Assembly (NCBI GenBank): GCA_039590175.1
Contig: JBDHFW010000001.1
Location: forward strand, 1-54,649
Direction: 5' to 3'
Length of the DNA stretch: 54,649 bases
Source of the DNA: Gemmatimonadota bacterium
GTDB lineage: Bacteria > Gemmatimonadota > Gemmatimonadetes > Palauibacterales > Palauibacteraceae
Each line of letters starts with the position of its first letter. Position 1 is the first letter of the stretch. The notes under the pieces are model-generated. The model was not told where the DNA came from, did no database searches, and saw only the letters and a list, made by a program, of their open reading frames with translations. Below are positions 4,372 to 17,100 of the stretch, piece after piece. Position numbers and translations under genes: made by a program.

Positions 4372-6020
4372 CACAGCGCTCCCTTCTTCGCCTCGCTCAC
4401 GAAATGCTCGGCCACCCGATATGCGTTCGCGAGGATGGTGAGGGTGGGGTTGTAACCGGCCGAGGTCGGGAAGACGCTGCCGTCCACGATCCAGAGGTTG
4501 GGGACGTCGTGGCTGCGACACCAGCGATCGACGACAGAACGCTCCGGATCGGTCCCCATCCGGCAGGTGCCCATGAGGTGCGAGCCACCTTTCATGGGCT
4601 GGTCCTCGGTCACCGTGATCGGCACCCAGCTTTCCTGGCCGCCGGCCGCGTCGGCGATCTCGAGGAGTCGCTTCTCGTACCACGCGACCATGGCCAGGTC
4701 GTTGGGATGCTGGCGATGGGTGATGCGGGGGACGGGAAGGCCGTACGTGTCGTTCACGTGGGGGTTGAGGTCGATCCGGTTCTCCTCCATCGGCAGGTCC
4801 TCGAGAAGCGCTGCCGCTCCGGCAACCCGGGGGAACTTCCGCAGGTAGTCCTTGAAGTCACTCCCCCAGGCCGGGGCTCCGTTTCGGTAGCTGTTGTGGC
4901 TGACCAGCGCGTAGGAGAGCGGCAACTTGTGGGGGAAGTTCGCCTCGATGACGACGCCGCCGCGGATGAAGCCGCGCTCCGGGTCGCTCGGATGGAGGTC
5001 GTCGATCGCCATGTGGGTCTCGAGCCCGGCGAAGCCGTGCGCCGGCTCGTCGATCAGGTAGGAGACCTGGACGACCGTGTGGAACATGAGGTTCCTGCCC
5101 ACCAGGCCGCTCGAGTTCCCGAGGCCGTCCGGAAAGGCGCCGGTCATCGACATCTGAAGAAGGTGGGGTGTGCCGATGGCGTTGCCGGCGACGATGATGT
5201 GGCGTGCGAACACCTCGCGCTCACGCCGCGTCTCCTGATCCAGATAGCGTACGCTCCGCGCGTAACCGTGCTTTCCCAGGGTGATCTCGAACGCCAGCGA
5301 GTTCGGCCGCAGGTCCAGCAATCCGGTCGCCTCGGCTCTCGGGAGTGCCACCGAGAGCGTCGTGGCTCTGGCGCCCATCGGGCAACCGAACCCCGAGCAA
5401 GCGCCGCCGTAGAGGCAGGCCGCCCGGGAATCGTAGGGTTGTGTGTTGATCGCCATCGGGGTGGGGAACGGGTGGTAACCCAGGCGGTTTGTACCACGAG
5501 CGAACCGCCGGGCCGCCGTCCGCTCGGGGACGGGGGGATTGGGGAAGCCACGCCTCCGCGGCGGGCCGAAACGGTTGGCCGCGGCATCGCCGGAGACGCC
5601 GAAATCCCACTCCGCCCGGTCGTAGTACGGCTCGAGCTCCTCGTAGTCCAGCGGCCAATCGGCCAGGCTGGCGCGGGACACGCGGCCCTCGGTCGAGCGC
5701 ACTTTGAACTCATCGGGCCGGAACCGCCAGTTCCAGCCGGCCCAGATAGTCATCGTCCCGCCCACACAATGGGCGACGTAGCTGAAGCGTCCGGTCTCCG
5801 TCGGGCCGTCAGGGGTCGACCGCCAGGTCTCGATCTGATCGGGCGAGAAGAGCCGGACCGCGCGCAACTCGTCGTCGCTCACGAAATCCTGGTTACGGAG
5901 GTAGGGTCCCCGCTGGAGGGCGACGACGCGAAAGCCGGCGGCCGTCAGCTCCCGAGTCATGACGCCGCCACCGGCTCCGGTGCCGATGACACAGACATCG
6001 AACGCTTCTCGCCGTTTCAC
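4371..6020 (-). CDS. GMC-family FAD-dependent oxidoreductase (flavoprotein subunit of a two-component periplasmic dehydrogenase)
   Basis: N-terminal FAD fingerprint DVCVIGTGAGGGV. C-terminal GMC signature region ...HLMGTCRMG....VVD...VPNLWIVDGSVFPTS. GTG start with a GGAAG SD-like element. Confidence 0.85.
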   Translation of the reverse strand: MKRREAFDVCVIGTGAGGGVMTRELTAAGFRVVALQRGPYLRNQDFVSDDELRAVRLFSPDQIETWRSTPDGPTETGRFSYVAHCVGGTMTIWAGWNWRFRPDEFKVRSTEGRVSRASLADWPLDYEELEPYYDRAEWDFGVSGDAAANRFGPPRRRGFPNPPVPERTAARRFARGTNRLGYHPFPTPMAINTQPYDSRAACLYGGACSGFGCPMGARATTLSVALPRAEATGLLDLRPNSLAFEITLGKHGYARSVRYLDQETRREREVFARHIIVAGNAIGTPHLLQMSMTGAFPDGLGNSSGLVGRNLMFHTVVQVSYLIDEPAHGFAGLETHMAIDDLHPSDPERGFIRGGVVIEANFPHKLPLSYALVSHNSYRNGAPAWGSDFKDYLRKFPRVAGAAALLEDLPMEENRIDLNPHVNDTYGLPVPRITHRQHPNDLAMVAWYEKRLLEIADAAGGQESWVPITVTEDQPMKGGSHLMGTCRMGTDPERSVVDRWCRSHDVPNLWIVDGSVFPTSAGYNPTLTILANAYRVAEHFVSEAKKGAL

Positions 6021-6254
6021 GTCGCTTCCGTTCCCGCCTCGGAGTGCGCTCGGAGATGGTCCGATCCACCTCTAAGACTCCTCAACAGGCTACGAGGATA
6101 CGGTATCAGGGCCTATCGGGAGGTGTCTGCGACACGTTGTCGGGCATTCCCCCACATGGCCCGCGTTCACCCGAAGGGTGCGAGAGGCTACCTTGTGGTA
6201 CCGGCCCTGAAAACGGGCTCCCGGTGTGACTCCGGATTGGATCGAAATGGCGAC

Positions 6255-8837
6255 ATGAGACTCGGATCGATCTTCGTCCTCGGGGCTGCTCTATCTCTCT
6301 TGGCGGCCCCTCGGGCGGCTGCCCAGAACGTGACTCCCGTCGCGCCCGACACGGTTTCCGTCGTTCCCGGTCCGGACTACGCGGCCGGCGGCTTCCACCG
6401 CTTCCTGTGGGGCGCCCACTACCGGGACGCATGGACGTCCTCCGTTCGGGTCCCGCTCCTAGATCTTTCGGTCTACGCCGGCGGGCTCACGCCGTTGAGC
6501 GCCGGCGGTGGGCTTCAGACCAAGTCTCTCTGGTTCGCGGGGGAGGACGGAAAGCCGTACGCCTTTCGCTCCGTGTACAAGAACGCGACGCCGCTCGTCC
6601 CCGAGCTTCTGCGCAACACCTTCGTGGAAAGCATCGCCCAGGATCAGATGAGCACCCAGTTCCCGGCCGGCGCCCTCGTCGCCGACTCGCTGCTCGTGGC
6701 TGCCGGCGTCCCCCATGCTCGCCCGACGCTTTGGGTGCTGCCCGATGATGCTTCGCTGGGGGAGTTCCGCGAGGAGTTCGCGGGGGTTCTGGGGCTGCTT
6801 CAGGAACGGCCGGTGGACGAGGACGAGGCGATCGCCGCGTTTGCCGGCGCCGAGGACGTCATCGGTTCAGAGGAGCTCATGGACCTCGTTCAGGGAATCC
6901 CTGCCGAGCGGGTCGATTCGCGCGCCTACCTCACCGCTCGACTCCTGGACATGCTCCTCGGCGACTGGGACCGACATGCCGATCAGTGGAAGTGGGCCAC
7001 CTTCGCCGATTCGACCCCCGGCTGGCGGCCGATCCCCCGCGACCGGGATCAGGCGTTCGCCAAGTTCGACGGGCTCCTTCCGAGCCTGGGTCGCCAGCGG
7101 TTCCCGGCCGTCTCGACCTTCCGGGAGAAGTACGGCAACGTTCTCAACCTCCATTACAACGCGCGCTTCCTGGACCGCCGATTCCTGACCGAGCTGGAGC
7201 GGGCCGCCTGGGACAACACGGCGGCGGTGCTGGCGTCGAGGCTTCCGGACGGCGTGATCGAGGGCGCGGTGGAGCGACTTCCGCCCGCGATCCAGGCGGT
7301 GGAGGGCGACTTCGTCCTCCGCTCTCTCATCAGCCGCCGCGACGGACTCCCGGAGGCGAGCTCGGAGCTCTACGCCCTGCTGGCGCGGGAGCCGTACGTC
7401 CACGCGACTGATGCGGCCGAGATCGCCGAGGTGTCCATGGCCCTCGGCGGGGGAGGAGTCGAGGTCTCGATCCGGTCGGCGGCGCCCGACTCGGAGCCGT
7501 ACTTCCGCCGCCGCTTCGAGAGAGGCGAAACGAACGAGATCCGCCTCTACCTGCACGGCGGCGATGATCGAGTGGTGTTCCGTGGGGAGCGCGGCTTCCC
7601 CATCAAGGTGCGGGTGATCGGAGGTCCGGGAGACGACGAGTTCCACTTCGCGACCCGAACCGGAAACGTCAAGCTGTACGATTGGCGAGGCAGCAACCGG
7701 GTGACGGGGGAGCGAAGCGGCGGCATCAACGCCAGACCGTATCCCGATGCGCCGCTGATTCCGCCGCCGAACTCGAAGCCCCCGCCCAGACACTGGGGCG
7801 GCATGGGATTCGGGATGGGGACGATCGGCTACAGCCCGGATTACTTCCTGATACTCGGGTACGGCTACACCTGGTTCGACTACGGCTTCCGGAAAGACCC
7901 GTATGCTTCCAAGCTGAAGCTGGATGGGCGGGTGGCGACGAAGGGAAGGGGAGCGCTCCGCTTCCAGGCCGATTTCCGGCCCGAGCACTCCTCCCTCTTC
8001 GTGCCGATCGACGTCTACGTGTCGAGTCTCGAGATTCTGCACTTCTACGGCGTCGGCAACGACACGGTGCTTCCTCCCGGGCTCGGCAGCGGGGATGACT
8101 TCTTCGACGTCAGACAGACCGTTCTCAAGGGAGAGGGCGGCCTCGGCTGGTCGTTCGGGCCGCTGGCGGATCTGGCTGTCGTCGTCTCCGGCGGGTACTC
8201 CAACACCTCCGACGACCCGGATCGCCTCATCGGAGAGCTGAACCCCTACGGCGCGGACGACTTCACGTCCCTGGGCACGCTGCTCAGGTTCGATCTCCAG
8301 ACCCGCCAGCCTGGGCTGTTCGAGCCCGCCGACCCGAGGCCTCACCTCTGGCTGCACGTCGGCGGCGGCTTCTATCCGGCAATCCTGGACGTCGCCGAGC
8401 CGTATGGGACGGCGGAGCTGGCAAGCGGGGCGGGCTTTCCGATCGGATGGCGCCAGTCGGAGTTCGCGGTGCGGGCGGGCGGCAAGAAGGTCTGGGGTCT
8501 CACGCCGTTCTACGATCTGGCCTACATCGGCGGAAACGAGAGTCTCCGCGGCTGGCCGGTGCAGCGGTTCGCGGGAGATGCGTCCCTCTACGGGAGCGGC
8601 TCACTTCGGCTGGACCTCTTCGACTACCGACTCATCTTTCCGTCCAGTTTCGGAATCCTCGGGATGTTCGATCTAGGGCGCGTCTGGGTGGAGGGAGAGT
8701 CGCCCGGCGGCTTCCACACCGGCTACGGCGGCGGGATCTGGATCGCGCTTCGGGGCACGCGCTCCATTCTCTCCATCACGTACGCCACCAGCACTCAGGA
8801 CCAGGGCCTCTATATGACGATGGGGTTCGCCTACTGA
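6255..8837 (+). CDS. 860-aa outer-membrane protein: uncharacterised N-terminal domain fused to an Omp85/BamA-TamA-type C-terminal beta-barrel
   Basis: Internal ATG with signal peptide MRLGSIFVLGAALSLLAAPRAAAQ. The C-terminus carries the Omp85-like motif GGNESLRGWPVQRF and an aromatic terminal residue (...MGFAY). The first 617 codons of the 1477-aa track ORF are antisense to the GMC gene. Confidence 0.75.
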   Translation: MRLGSIFVLGAALSLLAAPRAAAQNVTPVAPDTVSVVPGPDYAAGGFHRFLWGAHYRDAWTSSVRVPLLDLSVYAGGLTPLSAGGGLQTKSLWFAGEDGKPYAFRSVYKNATPLVPELLRNTFVESIAQDQMSTQFPAGALVADSLLVAAGVPHARPTLWVLPDDASLGEFREEFAGVLGLLQERPVDEDEAIAAFAGAEDVIGSEELMDLVQGIPAERVDSRAYLTARLLDMLLGDWDRHADQWKWATFADSTPGWRPIPRDRDQAFAKFDGLLPSLGRQRFPAVSTFREKYGNVLNLHYNARFLDRRFLTELERAAWDNTAAVLASRLPDGVIEGAVERLPPAIQAVEGDFVLRSLISRRDGLPEASSELYALLAREPYVHATDAAEIAEVSMALGGGGVEVSIRSAAPDSEPYFRRRFERGETNEIRLYLHGGDDRVVFRGERGFPIKVRVIGGPGDDEFHFATRTGNVKLYDWRGSNRVTGERSGGINARPYPDAPLIPPPNSKPPPRHWGGMGFGMGTIGYSPDYFLILGYGYTWFDYGFRKDPYASKLKLDGRVATKGRGALRFQADFRPEHSSLFVPIDVYVSSLEILHFYGVGNDTVLPPGLGSGDDFFDVRQTVLKGEGGLGWSFGPLADLAVVVSGGYSNTSDDPDRLIGELNPYGADDFTSLGTLLRFDLQTRQPGLFEPADPRPHLWLHVGGGFYPAILDVAEPYGTAELASGAGFPIGWRQSEFAVRAGGKKVWGLTPFYDLAYIGGNESLRGWPVQRFAGDASLYGSGSLRLDLFDYRLIFPSSFGILGMFDLGRVWVEGESPGGFHTGYGGGIWIALRGTRSILSITYATSTQDQGLYMTMGFAY

Positions 8838-9432: not shown

Positions 9433-9745
9433 GATGGCGCCTCCGGGGGAAAGTTTCATGCTGCCTGCGCTCTCCTAGTACGATGAACCGGCGGGTTCGT
9501 CAACGGAGCCGGAATGTCGCGCCCCCATGCCCCGTGCTGCGCGTGGGAGATGTCCTTACAATCGGGCGCGGGAATCCCCCCGATAGACGTCATCCTATTC
9601 CCGACAGCTTGATTCGACGCGCGCCGGTATCATCATGTTGAGTCCAGACTTGTGCTTCAACGCGTGTCGGGCAGAGGTAACTGGCGCGGGCCGCTGAGGC
9701 CTTAGCCGAGGCCGTAACCGACAACATGGAAAGGTGAGGAGACGC

Positions 9746-12415
9746 GTGAGCGCCAAGGTACCGGTGTGTGAGCCGCACAAGATAAAGACAGTTCGCCTGC
9801 TTTCCTTCCCAACCCGTGAGGAGCGGAAGAAGTACCTGGCGGAGGCCGATTTCAACGTCTTCAACCTGACGCCCTCCCAGGTGAGCTTCGACATGTGCTC
9901 GCTCGGAACGAGCGCGTTCAGCCAGAAGCAGCTCGCGGGTCAGCTGATTGGGGATGAGGCGTACGCCGGCAGCCGGAACTTCGAACATCTCCAGGAGGCC
10001 GTGAGCGAGGTCCTGGGCCACGGCTACGTCTGCCCCACCCACAACATCCTCGGATGCCTCAAGCTCATCGTGTCGACCCTGGTCCCGGCCGGCTCCGTCG
10101 TGCCGAGCAACGCCCGGGGACGCATCGATGTCCTCACCCCCCAGGGAGTTGAGATCCTGGATGTGCGCGATCGCGGAGAGGCGATCTTCACTGGGAACCT
10201 GGACCTGGATAACCTGGAGCGGGCTCTCGGCGAGGGCGGCGTGCCGATCATCGACCTTCCAACCTTCGCCGACGGACAGCATCCCTTCAGCCTCGCGAAT
10301 CTGCGAGCGGTGCGGTCCCTGGCGGATCGCTACGCGGTCCGGCTCGTCGTGGACGGCTCACGGGTGATCGAGAACGCCTGGTACATCCAGCGTCATGAGC
10401 CTGGCCAGGCCGATCGGCGGATTGCGGAGATCGTGGGCCAGATCGTGAAGACCGGCCACATCCTCCAGCTCGACGGGGCCCAGGACCCGAAATCCAACAC
10501 CGGCGGGATCATCACGACGGACAATCCGGACGACCACGAGAAGTTCATGAACGAAGTCGTGGTCTACGAGGGCCTTCACACCTACGGCGGCATGGCGGGC
10601 CGCACGATGGAGGTGCTCGCTCGGGGCCTGTTGGAGATGTGCGACGAGGCCGAGGTACGCTGGGTGATGCACCAGACGGAGCGGTTCACTCAGCGTCTGC
10701 GGGACGGGGGCGTGCCGCTCGAGCGGGGATGCGATGGCGCCTACGTGATGGCGGCCGAGTTTCTGCCGCAGGCCGGTGAGTATTCTCAGGACACCTTCTC
10801 GGCTGCCCTTTACCTCATGTCCGGCGTGCGCGCGGTCGCCCCGCATCCGACGGTGAGCCAGAACCTCGTTCCGGTGCAGATTCCGCGGCTGGCGATGACC
10901 AACGAGCAGCTGGACCAGGTGGCCGACGCGATCATCAGCCTCTACGGCCAGCGGGAGAAGGTCTCGCCGATGCAGGCCACGACAGTCGGGAGGTGGCGGG
11001 ACGAGATGGCCTATCACTGGGGATTCCCGGACCTCGAGCCATACCGATTCGACACCTTCTCCTACGAAATCCACACCGTCGAGCGCGTCGGCGAGCTGTC
11101 ACGCCGTCGACGCGAACGGGCGATTCGAACGGCCGGTTACAACACCTTCCTCCTCAGATCGGCCGATGTGACGATCGACCTGCTGACCGACTCGGGCACC
11201 TCCGCGATGAGCGTCGATCAGTGGGCGGCCTACGACGGCGTGCGCGCGAGTCCCAAGACCACCGATGAGTATCACCGGCTCGTCGAGGTCCTGCAGGAGA
11301 GCCTGGGCTACCAGCACATCATCCCGACCCATCAGGGCAGGGCGGCCGAGCACATCCTGAGTCAGATCATGATCAGGCCGGGTCAGCTGGTGCCGGGCAA
11401 CATGTACTTCACCACCACCAAGCTGCATCAAGAGCTGGCCGGCGGGGTGTTCGTGGACGTCATCGTGGACGAGGCGAAGAACCCGGAGAGCGAGCACCTG
11501 TGGAAGGGCGACATCGACCTCGGCAAGCTGCAGGCTCTGGTTGACGAGCACGGGGCCGACAACGTCGCCTACGTCTCCTTCGAGCACTCCGTGAACATGG
11601 CGGGCGGCCAGCCGGTCAGCATGGACAACATGAAGGAGGTCTATGCTTACTGCGGCTCGGTCGGCGTTCCGGTCTTCTTCGACGCCACGCGGGTCGTGGA
11701 GAACGCCTACATGATCCAGAGCCGCGATCCCCGCTACGCTGACATCCCGATCAAGGACATCCTTCGCGAGATGATGATCTATGGGGACGGGGCGACGGTC
11801 AGCGGCAAGAAGGATTTTCTAATCAATATTGGCGGGATCCTCGCCTTCAGGGAGAACGAGGAGTGGACACGCAAGGCGGAGGATCTGCTCAGGATCTACG
11901 AGGGCAACGTGACGGACGGGGGCCTGGCCACCGCCGACCTGGCCGCAATCGCGCGCGGCGTCGAGGAGATGGTCGACGACCGCTACATCCGGGCGCGAGT
12001 CCGCCAGACCCAGCTGCTGGGCGAGATGCTCCTGGACGCGGGCGTGCCGATCGTCACGCCTCCGGGGAGCCACGCGATTTTCCTGGACGCCAAACGCTTC
12101 CTGCCCCACATCGATCAGGACGAGTTTCCCGCCCAGCGGCTGGCGGCCGAGATCTTCGTCGAGACCGGCGTGCGGGCGATGGAACGGGGAAACGTCTCCA
12201 AGGGGCGGGACCCCGAGACGGGAGAGAACTACCGGCCGGCTCTCGAGCTCGTCCGGCTTACGATCCCGCGCCGCGTATACACGAACGACCACATGCGGGC
12301 GGTGGCGGACGGGATCATCCGCGTCCACGAGCGCCGCGACGAACTCGCGGGCCTCAAGTTCGTGTACGAGCCGGCTAAGCTCCGCTTCTTCCAGGGCCGC
12401 TTCGAGCTGGCCTAA
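9746..12415 (+). CDS. Tandem fusion of two beta-eliminating-lyase (tryptophanase / tyrosine phenol-lyase) domains; the N-domain lacks the PLP lysine and the C-domain looks catalytically complete
   Basis: Domain 2 (about nt 11040-12415) has IDLLTDSGTSAMS, PTHQGRAAE, NMAGGQPVS, FFDATRVVENAY, SGKKD (PLP Lys), LRLTIPRRVYT and FVYEPAKLRFF. Domain 1 (9746 to about 11035) is clearly homologous (EPHKIKTV, GDEAYAGSRNF, VVDGSRVIENAWYIQ) but has THNILGCLK and DGAQD in place of THQGRGAE and SGKKD. GTG at 9746 is preferred because GGTGAGGAG lies just upstream; GTG 9734 is the alternative. Confidence 0.85.
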   Translation: MSAKVPVCEPHKIKTVRLLSFPTREERKKYLAEADFNVFNLTPSQVSFDMCSLGTSAFSQKQLAGQLIGDEAYAGSRNFEHLQEAVSEVLGHGYVCPTHNILGCLKLIVSTLVPAGSVVPSNARGRIDVLTPQGVEILDVRDRGEAIFTGNLDLDNLERALGEGGVPIIDLPTFADGQHPFSLANLRAVRSLADRYAVRLVVDGSRVIENAWYIQRHEPGQADRRIAEIVGQIVKTGHILQLDGAQDPKSNTGGIITTDNPDDHEKFMNEVVVYEGLHTYGGMAGRTMEVLARGLLEMCDEAEVRWVMHQTERFTQRLRDGGVPLERGCDGAYVMAAEFLPQAGEYSQDTFSAALYLMSGVRAVAPHPTVSQNLVPVQIPRLAMTNEQLDQVADAIISLYGQREKVSPMQATTVGRWRDEMAYHWGFPDLEPYRFDTFSYEIHTVERVGELSRRRRERAIRTAGYNTFLLRSADVTIDLLTDSGTSAMSVDQWAAYDGVRASPKTTDEYHRLVEVLQESLGYQHIIPTHQGRAAEHILSQIMIRPGQLVPGNMYFTTTKLHQELAGGVFVDVIVDEAKNPESEHLWKGDIDLGKLQALVDEHGADNVAYVSFEHSVNMAGGQPVSMDNMKEVYAYCGSVGVPVFFDATRVVENAYMIQSRDPRYADIPIKDILREMMIYGDGATVSGKKDFLINIGGILAFRENEEWTRKAEDLLRIYEGNVTDGGLATADLAAIARGVEEMVDDRYIRARVRQTQLLGEMLLDAGVPIVTPPGSHAIFLDAKRFLPHIDQDEFPAQRLAAEIFVETGVRAMERGNVSKGRDPETGENYRPALELVRLTIPRRVYTNDHMRAVADGIIRVHERRDELAGLKFVYEPAKLRFFQGRFELA

Positions 12416-14046: not shown

Positions 14047-14901
14047 ATGAAGCGTCGAAGCAGTACTCTAATGGCCCGCCTCATCGTACTGTCGGCGCTC
14101 GCCGGCGCGAGCACGGCGGCGGCTCAGGAGGCTGGGAGCCAGCCGGAGCAGAATCAGCTCTACGCGCGCTTCCGGATTGAAGTCGGCGCCTTCGCGAGCT
14201 TCTTCAACACGAATCTCCAGCTCGGCTCCGAGGAGCTGGGCATCGGGACCGAGATCGATCTGGAAGACGATCTCGGGTTCGATACGAAGAAGTTCGACTT
14301 CCGCGCGGGCGGATTCCTCCGGCTCGGCAAGAGACATAAAATCCGCTACGGCTACTTCAGCCTCAACCGTAGCAGCAACAAGGTGCTCAGCGAGGATATC
14401 GAGTTCGGCGATGAGATCTTTCCGGTCGACGCGGTGGTCGACGCGGAGTTCAGGACCCAGTTCGCGGGGCTGGGCTACAGCTTCTCCTTCCTGGCGCGAG
14501 AGAAGGTCGAGGTTGGGATCGGCCTCGCGCTCAACGCCATGTTCACCAAGACCGGGATCGCGGTGGTCGGCTCGGTCGGCGACGATCCCATTGATCAGGT
14601 AGAGGAGCGGACGTCGGTCACCTTTCCCACGGGATCGCTGGGATTCGATGTCAACTGGGCGCCGCTGTCCCGGATGATCGTCCGCGGAAGGGTGGGTGGC
14701 CTCTACGTGAGCGTATCCACGATCAAGGCGTCGGTCGGCGACGCGAACGTCGGAGTCGAGTACTTCTTCACCCGCGGCTTCGGGGTCGGAGCCGGCTACA
14801 CCTACACAAAGCTGCGGGTGAAGGAGACCGAGGATCCGCAGCTGGAGATCACCTACCGCTACAGCGGGCTTATCGTTCACGGAGTCTTCGCGCTGTTCTA
14901 G
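14047..14901 (+). CDS. Outer-membrane beta-barrel protein (hypothetical)
   Basis: Signal peptide ...ALAGASTAAAQE, alternating amphipathic strands, and a C-terminal ...HGVFALF ending in Phe (OMP sorting signal). Confidence 0.6.
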   Translation: MKRRSSTLMARLIVLSALAGASTAAAQEAGSQPEQNQLYARFRIEVGAFASFFNTNLQLGSEELGIGTEIDLEDDLGFDTKKFDFRAGGFLRLGKRHKIRYGYFSLNRSSNKVLSEDIEFGDEIFPVDAVVDAEFRTQFAGLGYSFSFLAREKVEVGIGLALNAMFTKTGIAVVGSVGDDPIDQVEERTSVTFPTGSLGFDVNWAPLSRMIVRGRVGGLYVSVSTIKASVGDANVGVEYFFTRGFGVGAGYTYTKLRVKETEDPQLEITYRYSGLIVHGVFALF

Positions 14902-15171: not shown

Positions 15172-17100
15172 ATGATTACTCTGAGTCACCTCCGCCTCAC
15201 GGTCGCTGCGGCGGCCATCCTGACGGCGACATCCGGTCACTCCGCGCATGCTCAGTCGCCCAGTCCGTCCCGGGAGGCACTCGAAAGCGCGTACGGCGAC
15301 CGCCCGTACTCGCCGTGGGCCGGACGGGAGTTTCCGACGCAGGTGTTCTGGGGCGATACCCACGTCCACACGGCCTATTCGATGGACGCCGGGTCGTTCG
15401 GCGCCCGCCTGGACCCGAGCGATGCCTACCGCTTCGCCAAAGGAGAGGAGGTGATCTCCTCCACCGGTCAGCGCGTGAGGCTGTCGAGGCCGCTGGACTT
15501 CCTCGTGGTCGCCGACCACTCGGACAACATGGGCTTCTTCCCGCGGTTGAACGCGGGCGACTCCGAGTTTCTCGCCGACCCCACGGGCCGACGCTGGTAC
15601 GACATGATCCAGGGCGGCGAAGGCGTCGACGTGGCGATCGAGGTGATCGCGGGCTTTTCCGACGGCACCTTTCCGCCGGCGCTGCAGTCACTCCCCGGTG
15701 ACCCGGCTTACAAGGCGGCCTGGCAGGTCGCGCTCGACGCGGCCGAGGAAGCCAACGATCCGGGCTCCTTCACGGCGTTCATCGGCTACGAATGGACCTC
15801 CAACACGAACGGCAACAACCTGCACCGGGTCGTGATCTTCCGGGACGACGCAAACCGGGCGGGTCAGGTGGAGCCGTACACGACGCTTCGGCCCCTGGGG
15901 AGCGACGACCCTCGCGATCTCTGGCGCTGGCTCGGCTCCTACGAGCAGAAGACGGGCGGTCAGGTGCTCGCGATCCCGCACAACGGGAACCTGAGCAACG
16001 GGATCATGTTTCCGCTCGTGGACTCGTTCACGGGTCGGGATCTGGACCGGGAGTACGCCGCCACCCGCATCCGCTGGGAGCCGCTCTACGAGGTGACCCA
16101 GATCAAGGGGGACGGCGAGGCACACCCGCTGCTCTCGCCCGACGACGAGTTCGCCGACTACGAGACGTGGGACAAGGCCAACCTGACGTTGACCGTACCG
16201 AAGGAGCCGGAGATGCTCCCGTACGAGTACGGCCGCTCGGGGCTGCAGATAGGACTGCAGCTCGAGCAGAAGCTGGGCATCAATCCCTACAAGTTCGGGA
16301 TGATCGGCTCGACGGACACGCATACGGCACTCGCCACAGCGGACGAGGACAACTTCTTCGGCAAGCACTCCGGAACGGAGCCGAACGCCGGCCGGATCGA
16401 CCATCCGATGGGCGAGTTCAACGACATGGTCTACGAGGGCTGGAGCATGGTCGCGTCGGGCTACGCCGGCGTGTGGGCGAAAGAGAACACGCGCGAGGCG
16501 ATCTTCGACGCGATGGTGCGCAAGGAAGTCTACGCGACGACCGGCCCGCGGATGCTCGTGCGCTTCTTCGGCGGCTGGGACTTCCAGCCGGGCGATGCGG
16601 AGACGCGCAGCCCGGCGATCGCCGGCTACCAGAAGGGCGTGCCGATGGGCGGCTCGCTGCACGCGGCCCTAGCCGGAGAGGTCCCGACGTTCCTCGTGGC
16701 TGCTCTCAAGGACCCGATCGGCGCCAACCTGGACCGCATCCAGATCGTGAAGGGATGGCTGGACTCGAGCGGGGAGCGGCGGGAGAAGGTCTATGAGGTC
16801 GCTCTCTCAGATGGCCGGCAGGTCGGGTCCGACGGCAAGGCGCCGACGGTCGGCAACACCGTGGACGTGGCGAACTCGACGTGGACGAACACGATCGGGG
16901 ATACGGAGCTGATCGCCGTGTGGGAGGATCCGGACTTCGATCCGAGCCTGCCTGCTTTCTACTACGCGCGGGTGCTGCAGATTCCGACGCCGAGGTGGAC
17001 GGCCTACGACGCGCGGTACTACAGCGTGAGCGCCGGGGATGAGGTTCCGATGACGACGCAGGACCGGGCCTACACGTCGCCGATCTGGTACGCGCCGTAG
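15172..17100 (+). CDS. DUF3604 domain protein (PHP-like metal-dependent hydrolase fold), secreted
   Basis: Signal peptide ...[10 protein letters not shown]-terminal [16 protein letters not shown] (PHP-type HxH). C-terminal [20 protein letters not shown]...RAYTSPIWY is typical of DUF3604. Confidence 0.8.

Follow-up and report, generated by a model that had tools for sequence, protein, structure and literature searches.

In serine palmitoyltransferase, the fold-type-I pair LCB1/LCB2 has a single active site at the heterodimer interface, and one of the two paralogues is without the lysine that binds pyridoxal 5′-phosphate (PLP). The glycine decarboxylase P-protein, which is described as unusual among fold-type-I enzymes, occurs as a single chain of more than 1000 aa or as an alpha-beta pair, and its homologous halves carry the PLP lysine in the C-half only (PMC7259800). 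Here, we analyzed a gene at positions 9746 to 12415 on the forward strand of a 54,649-nucleotide stretch of Gemmatimonadota DNA (contig JBDHFW010000001.1), the whole of which is referred to below as the window. The gene encodes two domains of the tyrosine phenol-lyase (TPL) and tryptophanase (TnaA) family in one chain. The N-terminal half (N-half) has lost its cofactor site and kept the residues that act on a partner, and the C-terminal half (C-half) has kept its site and lost these residues, so that the two halves very likely build a composite active site, either within one chain or between two.

In this family, loop tyrosine Tyr-72* is supplied by the other chain (PMC11301627), and Tyr74 and Tyr307 of tryptophanase bond the PLP phosphate of the neighboring subunit (PMC2770544), in agreement with an earlier reading of this DNA (the original prediction), which took the loop tyrosine to be contributed by the partner subunit. 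The catalytic roles of Tyr71, Arg381, Thr124, and Lys257 in TPL have been stated (PMC10170061), and TnaA Tyr74 and Tyr307 correspond to TPL Tyr71 and Tyr291. Both halves of the tandem lyase and those of 120 close homologues were aligned to C. freundii TPL, whose reference sequence agreed with the PDB alignments. Seventeen TPL residues were scored as belonging to a subunit's own site, namely Thr49, Ser51, Gln98, Gly99, Arg100, Phe123, Thr124, Asn185, Asp214, Arg217, Ser254, Lys256, Lys257, Asn262, Arg381, Arg404, and Phe448. We take several of these residues to have the roles that they have in C. freundii TPL, and we likewise assume that Glu69 is the cation site.

The open reading frame (ORF) spans 9734..12415 on the forward strand and encodes 893 aa when read from the first in-frame GTG. 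All residue numbers are counted from this upstream GTG at 9734, and subtracting 4 gives the numbering of the 889-aa protein. The start of the tandem lyase is likely GTG 9746, in keeping with an AGGAG-like site shortly 5′ of it and with the length of most homologues, 885–889 aa. The main parts of the gene are as follows, with model confidence as the predicted local distance difference test (pLDDT).

9746..12415, + strand: whole gene of the tandem beta-eliminating lyase, starting at GTG 9746 (889 aa) and ending with TAA at 12413-12415
9764..11020, + strand: N-half, residues 11-429, TPL-like full-length domain with a dead cofactor site and retained partner-acting elements
11021..11059, + strand: junction GFPDLEPYRFDTF, longer than the native C- and N-termini together by only about 4 residues, pLDDT 94-97
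11060..12412, + strand: C-half, residues 443-893, catalytic domain of the TPL type whose cofactor and substrate site is intact

When the halves were scanned separately, both matched Pfam Beta_elim_lyase (PF01212; gathering score 27 bits), the N-half with 76.5 bits (E 2.9e-21) and the C-half with 230.4 bits (E 3.5e-68), which upholds the description of one 889-aa ORF with two full-length beta-eliminating-lyase domains. The two halves were 28% identical to each other (E 6e-41). Translation also reproduced all motifs and coordinates that the original prediction had listed for the two domains.

Residues 12-412 of the N-half aligned with solved TPL structures at E 7e-59. Its relevant elements are listed below.

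9776..9799, + strand: N-terminal arm strand HKIKTVRL, residues 15-22, a strand with pLDDT 95-97 in the full-length model, equivalent to tryptophanase 12-17
9887-9910, + strand: FDMCSLGT, in place of DLLTDSGT, by translation
9950..9973, + strand: GDEAYAGS loop, with Glu75 (9956-9958) equivalent to TPL Glu69 and Tyr77 (TAC, 9962-9964) equivalent to TPL Tyr71
10037-10063, + strand: THNILGCLK, in place of the THQGRGAE motif, by translation
10472..10486, + strand: DGAQD (SGKKD in TPL), with AQ (10478-10483) for KK and Gln250 for the PLP lysine
10568..10591, + strand: EGLHTYGG, with Tyr284 (10583-10585) equivalent to TPL Tyr291 and TnaA Tyr307

Only 3 of the 17 own-site residues were retained in the N-half. 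The changes relative to TPL were Q98N, G99I, R100L, F123G, T124R, a deletion of N185, S254D, K256A, K257Q, R381P, and R404P, so that the phosphate, ring-stacking, and carboxylate ligands were lost besides the PLP lysine. The claim that the first domain has no lysine at the PLP position was thus confirmed and extended, with Lys256-Lys257 replaced by Ala249-Gln250 and other cofactor ligands gone as well. Glutamine occupied the PLP-lysine position in 118 of the 121 close-family members. The two partner-acting segments, Asp74-Glu75-Ala76-Tyr77 and Glu279-Gly280-Leu281-...-Tyr284, were invariant (121/121). The partner-acting Met288 of TPL is Leu281 in the N-half, and leucine is likewise found in intact environmental TPLs.

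The C-half aligned end to end (residues 443-891) with solved TPLs at about 60% identity (HMMER, E about 1e-156), and Foldseek superposed it on TPL with a template modeling (TM) score of 0.95. The elements of this half are the following.

11063..11086, + strand: YEIHTVER (residues 444-451), the strand of the N-terminal arm, modeled at pLDDT 97 in the full-length chain
11174-11200, + strand: IDLLTDSGT, kept, by translation
11231..11272, + strand: degenerate loop YDGVRASPKTTDEY in place of the GDEAYAGS (DEAY) loop, with Glu69 and Tyr71 lost
11327-11350, + strand: THQGRAAE, kept, by translation
11411..11413, + strand: Thr560 (TPL Thr124), TPL-type specificity triad
11594-11620, + strand: NMAGGQPVS, kept, by translation
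11801-11815, + strand: SGKKD, kept, by translation
11807..11812, + strand: Lys692-Lys693 (TPL Lys256-Lys257), with Lys693 the predicted Schiff-base lysine
11900..11923, + strand: EGNVTDGG, with Asp728 (11915-11917) for TPL Tyr291
12185-12187, + strand: Arg818 (TPL Arg381), TPL-type specificity triad
12386-12388, + strand: Phe885 (TPL Phe448), TPL-type specificity triad

All 17 own-site residues were retained in the C-half and were invariant in the close family (121/121). These include the PLP lysine Lys257 and the ligands Gln98, Arg100, Phe123, Asn185, Asp214, Arg217, Ser254, and Arg404, most of which are absent from the N-half. The partner-acting positions were changed throughout, with Ala505 for Glu69, Pro507 for Tyr71, Asn725 for Met288, and Asp728 for Tyr291. 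Across the close family, the position of Tyr71 held Ala, Pro, or Ser, and that of Tyr291 held Asp in 120 of 121 members. The second domain therefore keeps its PLP motifs and has no equivalent of the tyrosine loop, as had been claimed, with Ala505 and Pro507 standing at the positions of Glu69 and Tyr71.

The second partner-acting tyrosine, which the original prediction did not mention, obeyed the same rule as the loop tyrosine, since TPL Tyr291 was kept in the N-half and was Asp in the C-half. Glu69, Tyr71, and Tyr291, which every subunit of ordinary TPL carries and by which identical subunits serve one another, thus had counterparts (Glu75, Tyr77, and Tyr284) in the N-half only. In its retained and lost residues, the N-half is the mirror image of the C-half.

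The complementary tandem lyases are a large family found across many phyla and not a one-off. More than 120 full-length homologues of at least 76% identity were found in independent assemblies, mostly of Gemmatimonadota and Longimicrobiales, and the close homologues carried only the names "tryptophanase" or "tyrosine phenol-lyase". When the N-half was compared with 1.84 billion representative proteins, 11 further tandem representatives of 847–928 aa with around 32–38% identity were retrieved, and no stand-alone N-half-like protein was present among the 150 best matches. Short matches were considered as split or stand-alone N-half genes and rejected, as they were contig-end fragments or frameshifted copies. 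A profile built from the tandem representatives retrieved around 115 more tandem clusters, with sources including Deltaproteobacteria, Elusimicrobia, Schekmanbacteria, Nitrospirae, Bacteroidales, one cyanobacterium, and "bacterium HR21". In species-representative genomes, the N- and C-halves were encoded by one gene at loci L001-L034, L040, L042, and L059, in the same frame at all of these loci except L032 (33 of the first 34 related loci). Tandem loci also came from Myxococcales, Planctomycetota, Acidobacteriota, Eisenbacteria, and Dokdonella, and the closed Gemmatimonadota chromosome CP070670.1 carried a tandem gene with an 83% identical N-half. The database search for tandem Beta_elim_lyase proteins of around 880–900 aa, which had been proposed as a check, thus yielded 238 tandem proteins from many phyla. 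At L032 (8026-10686), on a 1.1-Mb contig of a Gemmatimonadales metagenome-assembled genome (MAG), the tandem gene was in pieces in two frames, which represents either a pseudogene or long-read indel errors.

The same division of residues was found in this wider family. Among 12 lineages less than 50% identical to each other, all 12 N-halves kept GDEAYAG and EG[LM]xxYGG (11-12/12 positions), and the C-halves kept 14-17 of the 17 own-site residues and in no case Tyr291. In the 238 tandem proteins, Tyr71 was kept by 235 N-halves vs. 5 C-halves, Tyr291 by 237 vs. 2, and Glu69 by 235 vs. 74, while the PLP lysine was kept by only 8 N-halves vs. all 238 C-halves. The Thr/Arg/Phe triad was present in 232 of the 238 C-halves. 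The near-invariant N-half columns of the wider family included both partner-acting loops and none of the former cofactor-ligand positions. Because of these comparative data from 12 lineages and 238 tandems, the proposed division of labor, with the tyrosine from the first domain and PLP from the second, is now strongly supported and its logic much stronger than in the single gene.

The N-half is under purifying selection and shows no decay. The ratio of nonsynonymous to synonymous substitutions (dN/dS) was 0.11–0.30 for the N-half vs. 0.10–0.26 for the C-half, values that are rough since dS was near 1 and thus near saturation, and the mean pairwise identity in the close family was 74% vs. 81%. 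In a rough neighbor-joining tree, the C-halves of the main group formed one clade beside single-domain TPLs, and the N-half and C-half subtrees mirrored one another, a pattern that fits one old fusion inherited as a unit. Mutual information with average product correction (APC) between the halves of the 238 tandems was discarded, as the effective number of sequences was around 35 and the top pairs were alignment-edge noise.

Other tandem proteins differed in how far the two halves had diverged. In a 944-aa protein from a Chroococcales cyanobacterium MAG (P0278), both halves looked near intact, the N-half having 15/17 own-site residues and the lysine, and the C-half 15/17 own-site and 11/11 partner residues. 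This protein may represent a little-diverged stage of fusion. Five proteins (P0130, P0133, P0139, P0332, and P0136) fell outside the main group, into another group of tandem beta-eliminating lyases. All of these except P0136 kept the SGKK lysines and most cofactor ligands in the N-half. In the C-halves of this group, Tyr291 was gone in 5/5 and Tyr71 in P0130 and P0136. Their substrate is probably different, judging by C-halves that are without the TPL triad (e.g., F/W/F, T/K/A, or I/R/A). Together, the near-intact tandem (P0278), the forms with the N-half lysine kept and the C-half already without Tyr291 (P0130, P0133, P0139), and the fully complementary forms seem to make up an evolutionary series.

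The way in which the two halves pack was examined with AlphaFold. The full-length model had a pLDDT of 94.4, above 90 at the junction, and a predicted TM-score (pTM) of 0.93, which in a two-domain chain means that the halves are confidently placed relative to each other. In tryptophanase, the non-catalytic (A-C) interface is a four-stranded sheet to which each subunit contributes residues 12-17 and 58-60, and the N-terminal arms of an ordinary tetramer touch no partner but the non-catalytic one (PMC2770544). By numbering offset, this sheet corresponds to residues 16-21 and 61-63 of the N-half and 445-450 and 491-493 of the C-half, and the full-length model had strands at 15-22, 62-63, 444-451, and 492-493, all of them confident. 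When the C-half was modeled alone with a comparable alignment, residues 430-456 had no secondary structure (pLDDT 47, 63, and 82 over successive ten-residue blocks), strand 492-493 was gone, and the remainder of the domain was unchanged. Since arms touch only the non-catalytic partner, two ordered arms in one chain suggest that the halves are arranged as that dimer. The local confidence dips to 85 and 89 at the partner-acting loops of the N-half in the single-chain model, and the near-linker-free junction, fit the same packing. One chain thus looks like a covalent non-catalytic dimer in these models. Foldseek against PDB found no solved chain spanning both halves, with a best query-normalized TM score of 0.49. 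The original prediction had asked whether the halves pack as the catalytic dimer; the model is that of a rigid pair, and its four A-C sheet strands point to the non-catalytic interface instead.

Taken together, the tandem TPL-type enzyme would have arisen by an old internal duplication or fusion followed by complementary loss. The C-half would bind PLP at Lys693, with a substrate pocket of Thr560, Arg818, Arg841, and Phe885, and is without the three residues normally lent to the catalytic partner. The N-half would supply these, with Glu75 at the cation site, Tyr77 as the general acid, and Tyr284 as a ligand of the PLP phosphate, so that in each live site a C-half would provide the PLP pocket and an N-half the loops. 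Within one chain, the halves would pack via the beta-sheet of the N-terminal arms, like the non-catalytic dimer of the ordinary tetramer; with such packing, composite sites would form between chains in a pseudo-tetramer. In a homodimer on a suitable two-fold axis, the catalytic pairs would be N1:C2 and C1:N2, each with one live and one dead site. Such a homodimer would mimic the tetramer but have two of its four sites live, the other two being dead. One PLP per chain would still be expected, as in the original prediction; every retained residue would be used, and every lost residue would lie in a dead site. We infer the heterotypic N:C pairing, its geometry in cis or trans, the oligomer, and the substrate from these lines of evidence, and we consider the whole explanation, with inter-chain N:C sites and non-catalytic packing within the chain, to be probable.

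Several points weigh against this explanation. The packing mode rests on differences in secondary structure and confidence between two AlphaFold runs, and the proposed dimer lies beyond what a run of a single chain can show. On its own, the C-half scored 616.8 bits on the NCBIfam TPL equivalog TIGR02618, below the cut-off of 720.7 bits, and the roughness of the dN/dS values has been mentioned. No conserved neighboring gene that would hint at the physiology was found, as the gene itself alone recurred among 38 loci. If the halves of one chain were instead the catalytic dimer, Tyr77 would reach the Lys693 site in the same chain, and the protein would be a self-contained heterodimer with a single site, as the original prediction had proposed. 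The complementary residue pattern fits this arrangement too, the halves of the glycine decarboxylase P-protein are described so, and the high pTM denotes a rigid pair, the interface being unspecified by pTM itself. However, both arms were ordered 8-residue strands, although arms contact only the non-catalytic partner in the tetramer. The arm of the C-half collapsed without the N-half, the loops of the N-half showed the dips expected of unpaired loops, and the junction was almost free of a linker. We consider a catalytic pair within the chain unlikely, and the single-site covalent heterodimer gives way to what is probably a non-catalytic pair, given the A-C strands and the loss of the C-half arm in isolation.

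Pairing could also be C:C and N:N, in which case the N-half would be a scaffold or regulatory pseudoenzyme, and the C:C site, having no loop tyrosines, would catalyze only eliminations of good leaving groups (serine, cysteine, S-alkyl-cysteine) and no tyrosine cleavage. Both symmetric assemblies of two tandem chains would be geometrically possible, the effect of Tyr71 replacement on activity differs between substrates (PMC3870968), and close-family members preserve the remodeled pocket of the N-half well. Nevertheless, the pocket residues are not conserved in the wider family, and such pairing leaves unexplained both the near-invariant Glu69, Tyr71, and Tyr291 of the N-half across lineages less than 50% identical and the Thr124/Arg381/Phe448 triad of the C-half (232/238), which makes it quite improbable. 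An assembly or annotation artefact, in which two adjacent genes were joined via a missed stop or frameshift, had been named as a possible objection. Nothing in its favor was found, although the related locus L032 has frame changes. The reading frame ran uninterrupted through the junction, 34 of the first 34 related loci had one gene (33 in one frame), more than 230 full-length homologues exist, including the one on the closed chromosome CP070670.1, and the 150 best matches in 1.84 billion representatives held no stand-alone N-half-like protein. With the open frame and these homologues, the objection can be set aside as having next to no probability. The preferred explanation thus remains composite N:C sites between chains whose halves pack as the non-catalytic dimer.

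With regard to function, the whole protein scored 848.6 bits on TIGR02618 and the N-half 237.1 bits, and the whole protein exceeded the cut-off solely through the sum of its two half scores. The substrate identity is insecure, since the C-half alone fell below this cut-off. The tryptophanase equivalogs TIGR02617 and NF053783 gave 584.1 and 669.3 bits vs. cut-offs of 825.8 and 750, so that both were missed, and the subfamily cut-off of NF009709 was passed. The C-half carries the triad T/R/F (Thr560/Arg818/Phe885) vs. D/I(V)/H in the intact control tryptophanases at L022, L039, L075, and L078. Because of this triad, the predicted reaction is the beta-elimination of phenol from L-tyrosine, which in TPL yields pyruvate and ammonia besides phenol.

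The neighboring genes in the window were unrelated. They encode a ChrR-type cupin, DoxX, a cation-efflux protein, and DUF3604, the last being a full-length 642-aa member (15172-17100, + strand; 813.6 bits) of a family whose function is unknown. A hydrophobic start resembling a signal peptide by eye was seen in two proteins, of 861 aa (6252-8834, + strand) and 284 aa (14047-14901, + strand), neither of which matched a Pfam family at E ≤0.001. ORF 4404-8837 as listed begins too far 5′, the likely start being near 6252. Scans for promoters and terminators, tRNAs, and Rfam families found nothing.

Separate lyase genes also lie side by side in other genomes. In three Bacteroidota genomes, a tryptophanase-type gene adjoins a TPL-type gene, namely at L039 (5616-7031 and 7700-9100) of a Chitinophagales MAG, and at L075 (6318-7961 and 7965-9353) and L078 (6505-7953 and 7935-9353) of an unclassified Bacteroidetes MAG and Ferruginibacter. 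Both genes of each pair were intact and on the same strand, with triads of D/I or V/H next to T/R/F. In an Eisenbacteria MAG (L022, 6587-7990), an intact tryptophanase-type gene lies directly upstream of the tandem gene. These adjacent genes were considered as unfused precursors and rejected, since they are intact, non-complementary tryptophanase/TPL pairs.

The tandem TPL is a natural dissection, in which own-site and partner-site residues stand on different domains, a separation studied until now by mutagenesis in TPL and tryptophanase. It would imply that a four-site tetramer is replaceable by a two-site one in many phyla, which bears on half-of-sites behavior and on retained dead sister domains. 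If the evolutionary series is real, the order of losses could be reconstructed and tested. Hundreds of tandem proteins are labeled plainly as tyrosine phenol-lyase or tryptophanase, the former because the summed scores of the halves pass the NCBIfam threshold in annotation pipelines, and metagenome counts of phenol- or indole-producing genes may therefore include this predicted enzyme. Industry employs TPL to make L-DOPA (PMC10170061), and a covalently stabilized tandem TPL is a possible engineering scaffold.

Within the literature covered, searches for tandem, fused, duplicated, or pseudoenzyme forms of TPL, tryptophanase, or beta-eliminating lyase found no relevant paper, nor one linking TPL with Gemmatimonadetes, in line with the original prediction, which was aware of no description of such a single-site arrangement for these enzymes. 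Among known systems, the C-half is closest to TPL (EC 4.1.99.2) of C. freundii and Erwinia herbicola (PDB 2EZ1, 1C7G), with around 60% identity, a TM score of 0.95, all 17 checked cofactor and substrate residues, and the need for a second domain of the same fold to complete the active site. In contrast to the homotetramer of around 456-residue, one-domain subunits with four sites, the tandem TPL has two domains per chain (889 residues) and an expected two live sites per four domains, and its catalytic half is without Glu69, Tyr71, and Tyr291, which we propose are supplied by the dead sister domain. Tryptophanase (TnaA, EC 4.1.99.1) belongs to the same family, as reflected by NF009709, and has the same tetramer logic of catalytic and non-catalytic interfaces, but differs in its D/I(V)/H triad, and the tandem TPL misses both TnaA equivalog cut-offs.

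The principle of a dead and a live domain has a fold-type-I precedent in the glycine decarboxylase P-protein, with which the tandem TPL shares two homologous fold-type-I halves in one chain, the PLP lysine in the C-half only, and a retained N-half. However, the two are unrelated in sequence, as the models and structures that matched the tandem TPL were those of Beta_elim_lyase, TPL, and TnaA alone. In addition, the P-protein occurs in a split alpha-beta form too, but the 150 best matches contained no split tandem TPL, and the tandem TPL, according to its model, probably links the non-catalytic pair and has its composite site between chains. Serine palmitoyltransferase LCB1/LCB2 differs in having separate genes, a different family, and a different chemistry. 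With roughly even chances, the tandem TPL would be the second fold-type-I enzyme, independent of glycine decarboxylase, in which a duplication within one chain split the jobs of a subunit between the copies. In this case the link would join the non-catalytic pair, making the enzyme an obligate half-of-sites pseudo-tetramer in which each live site is heterotypic and lies between chains, and public metagenomes would seem to contain an evolutionary series.

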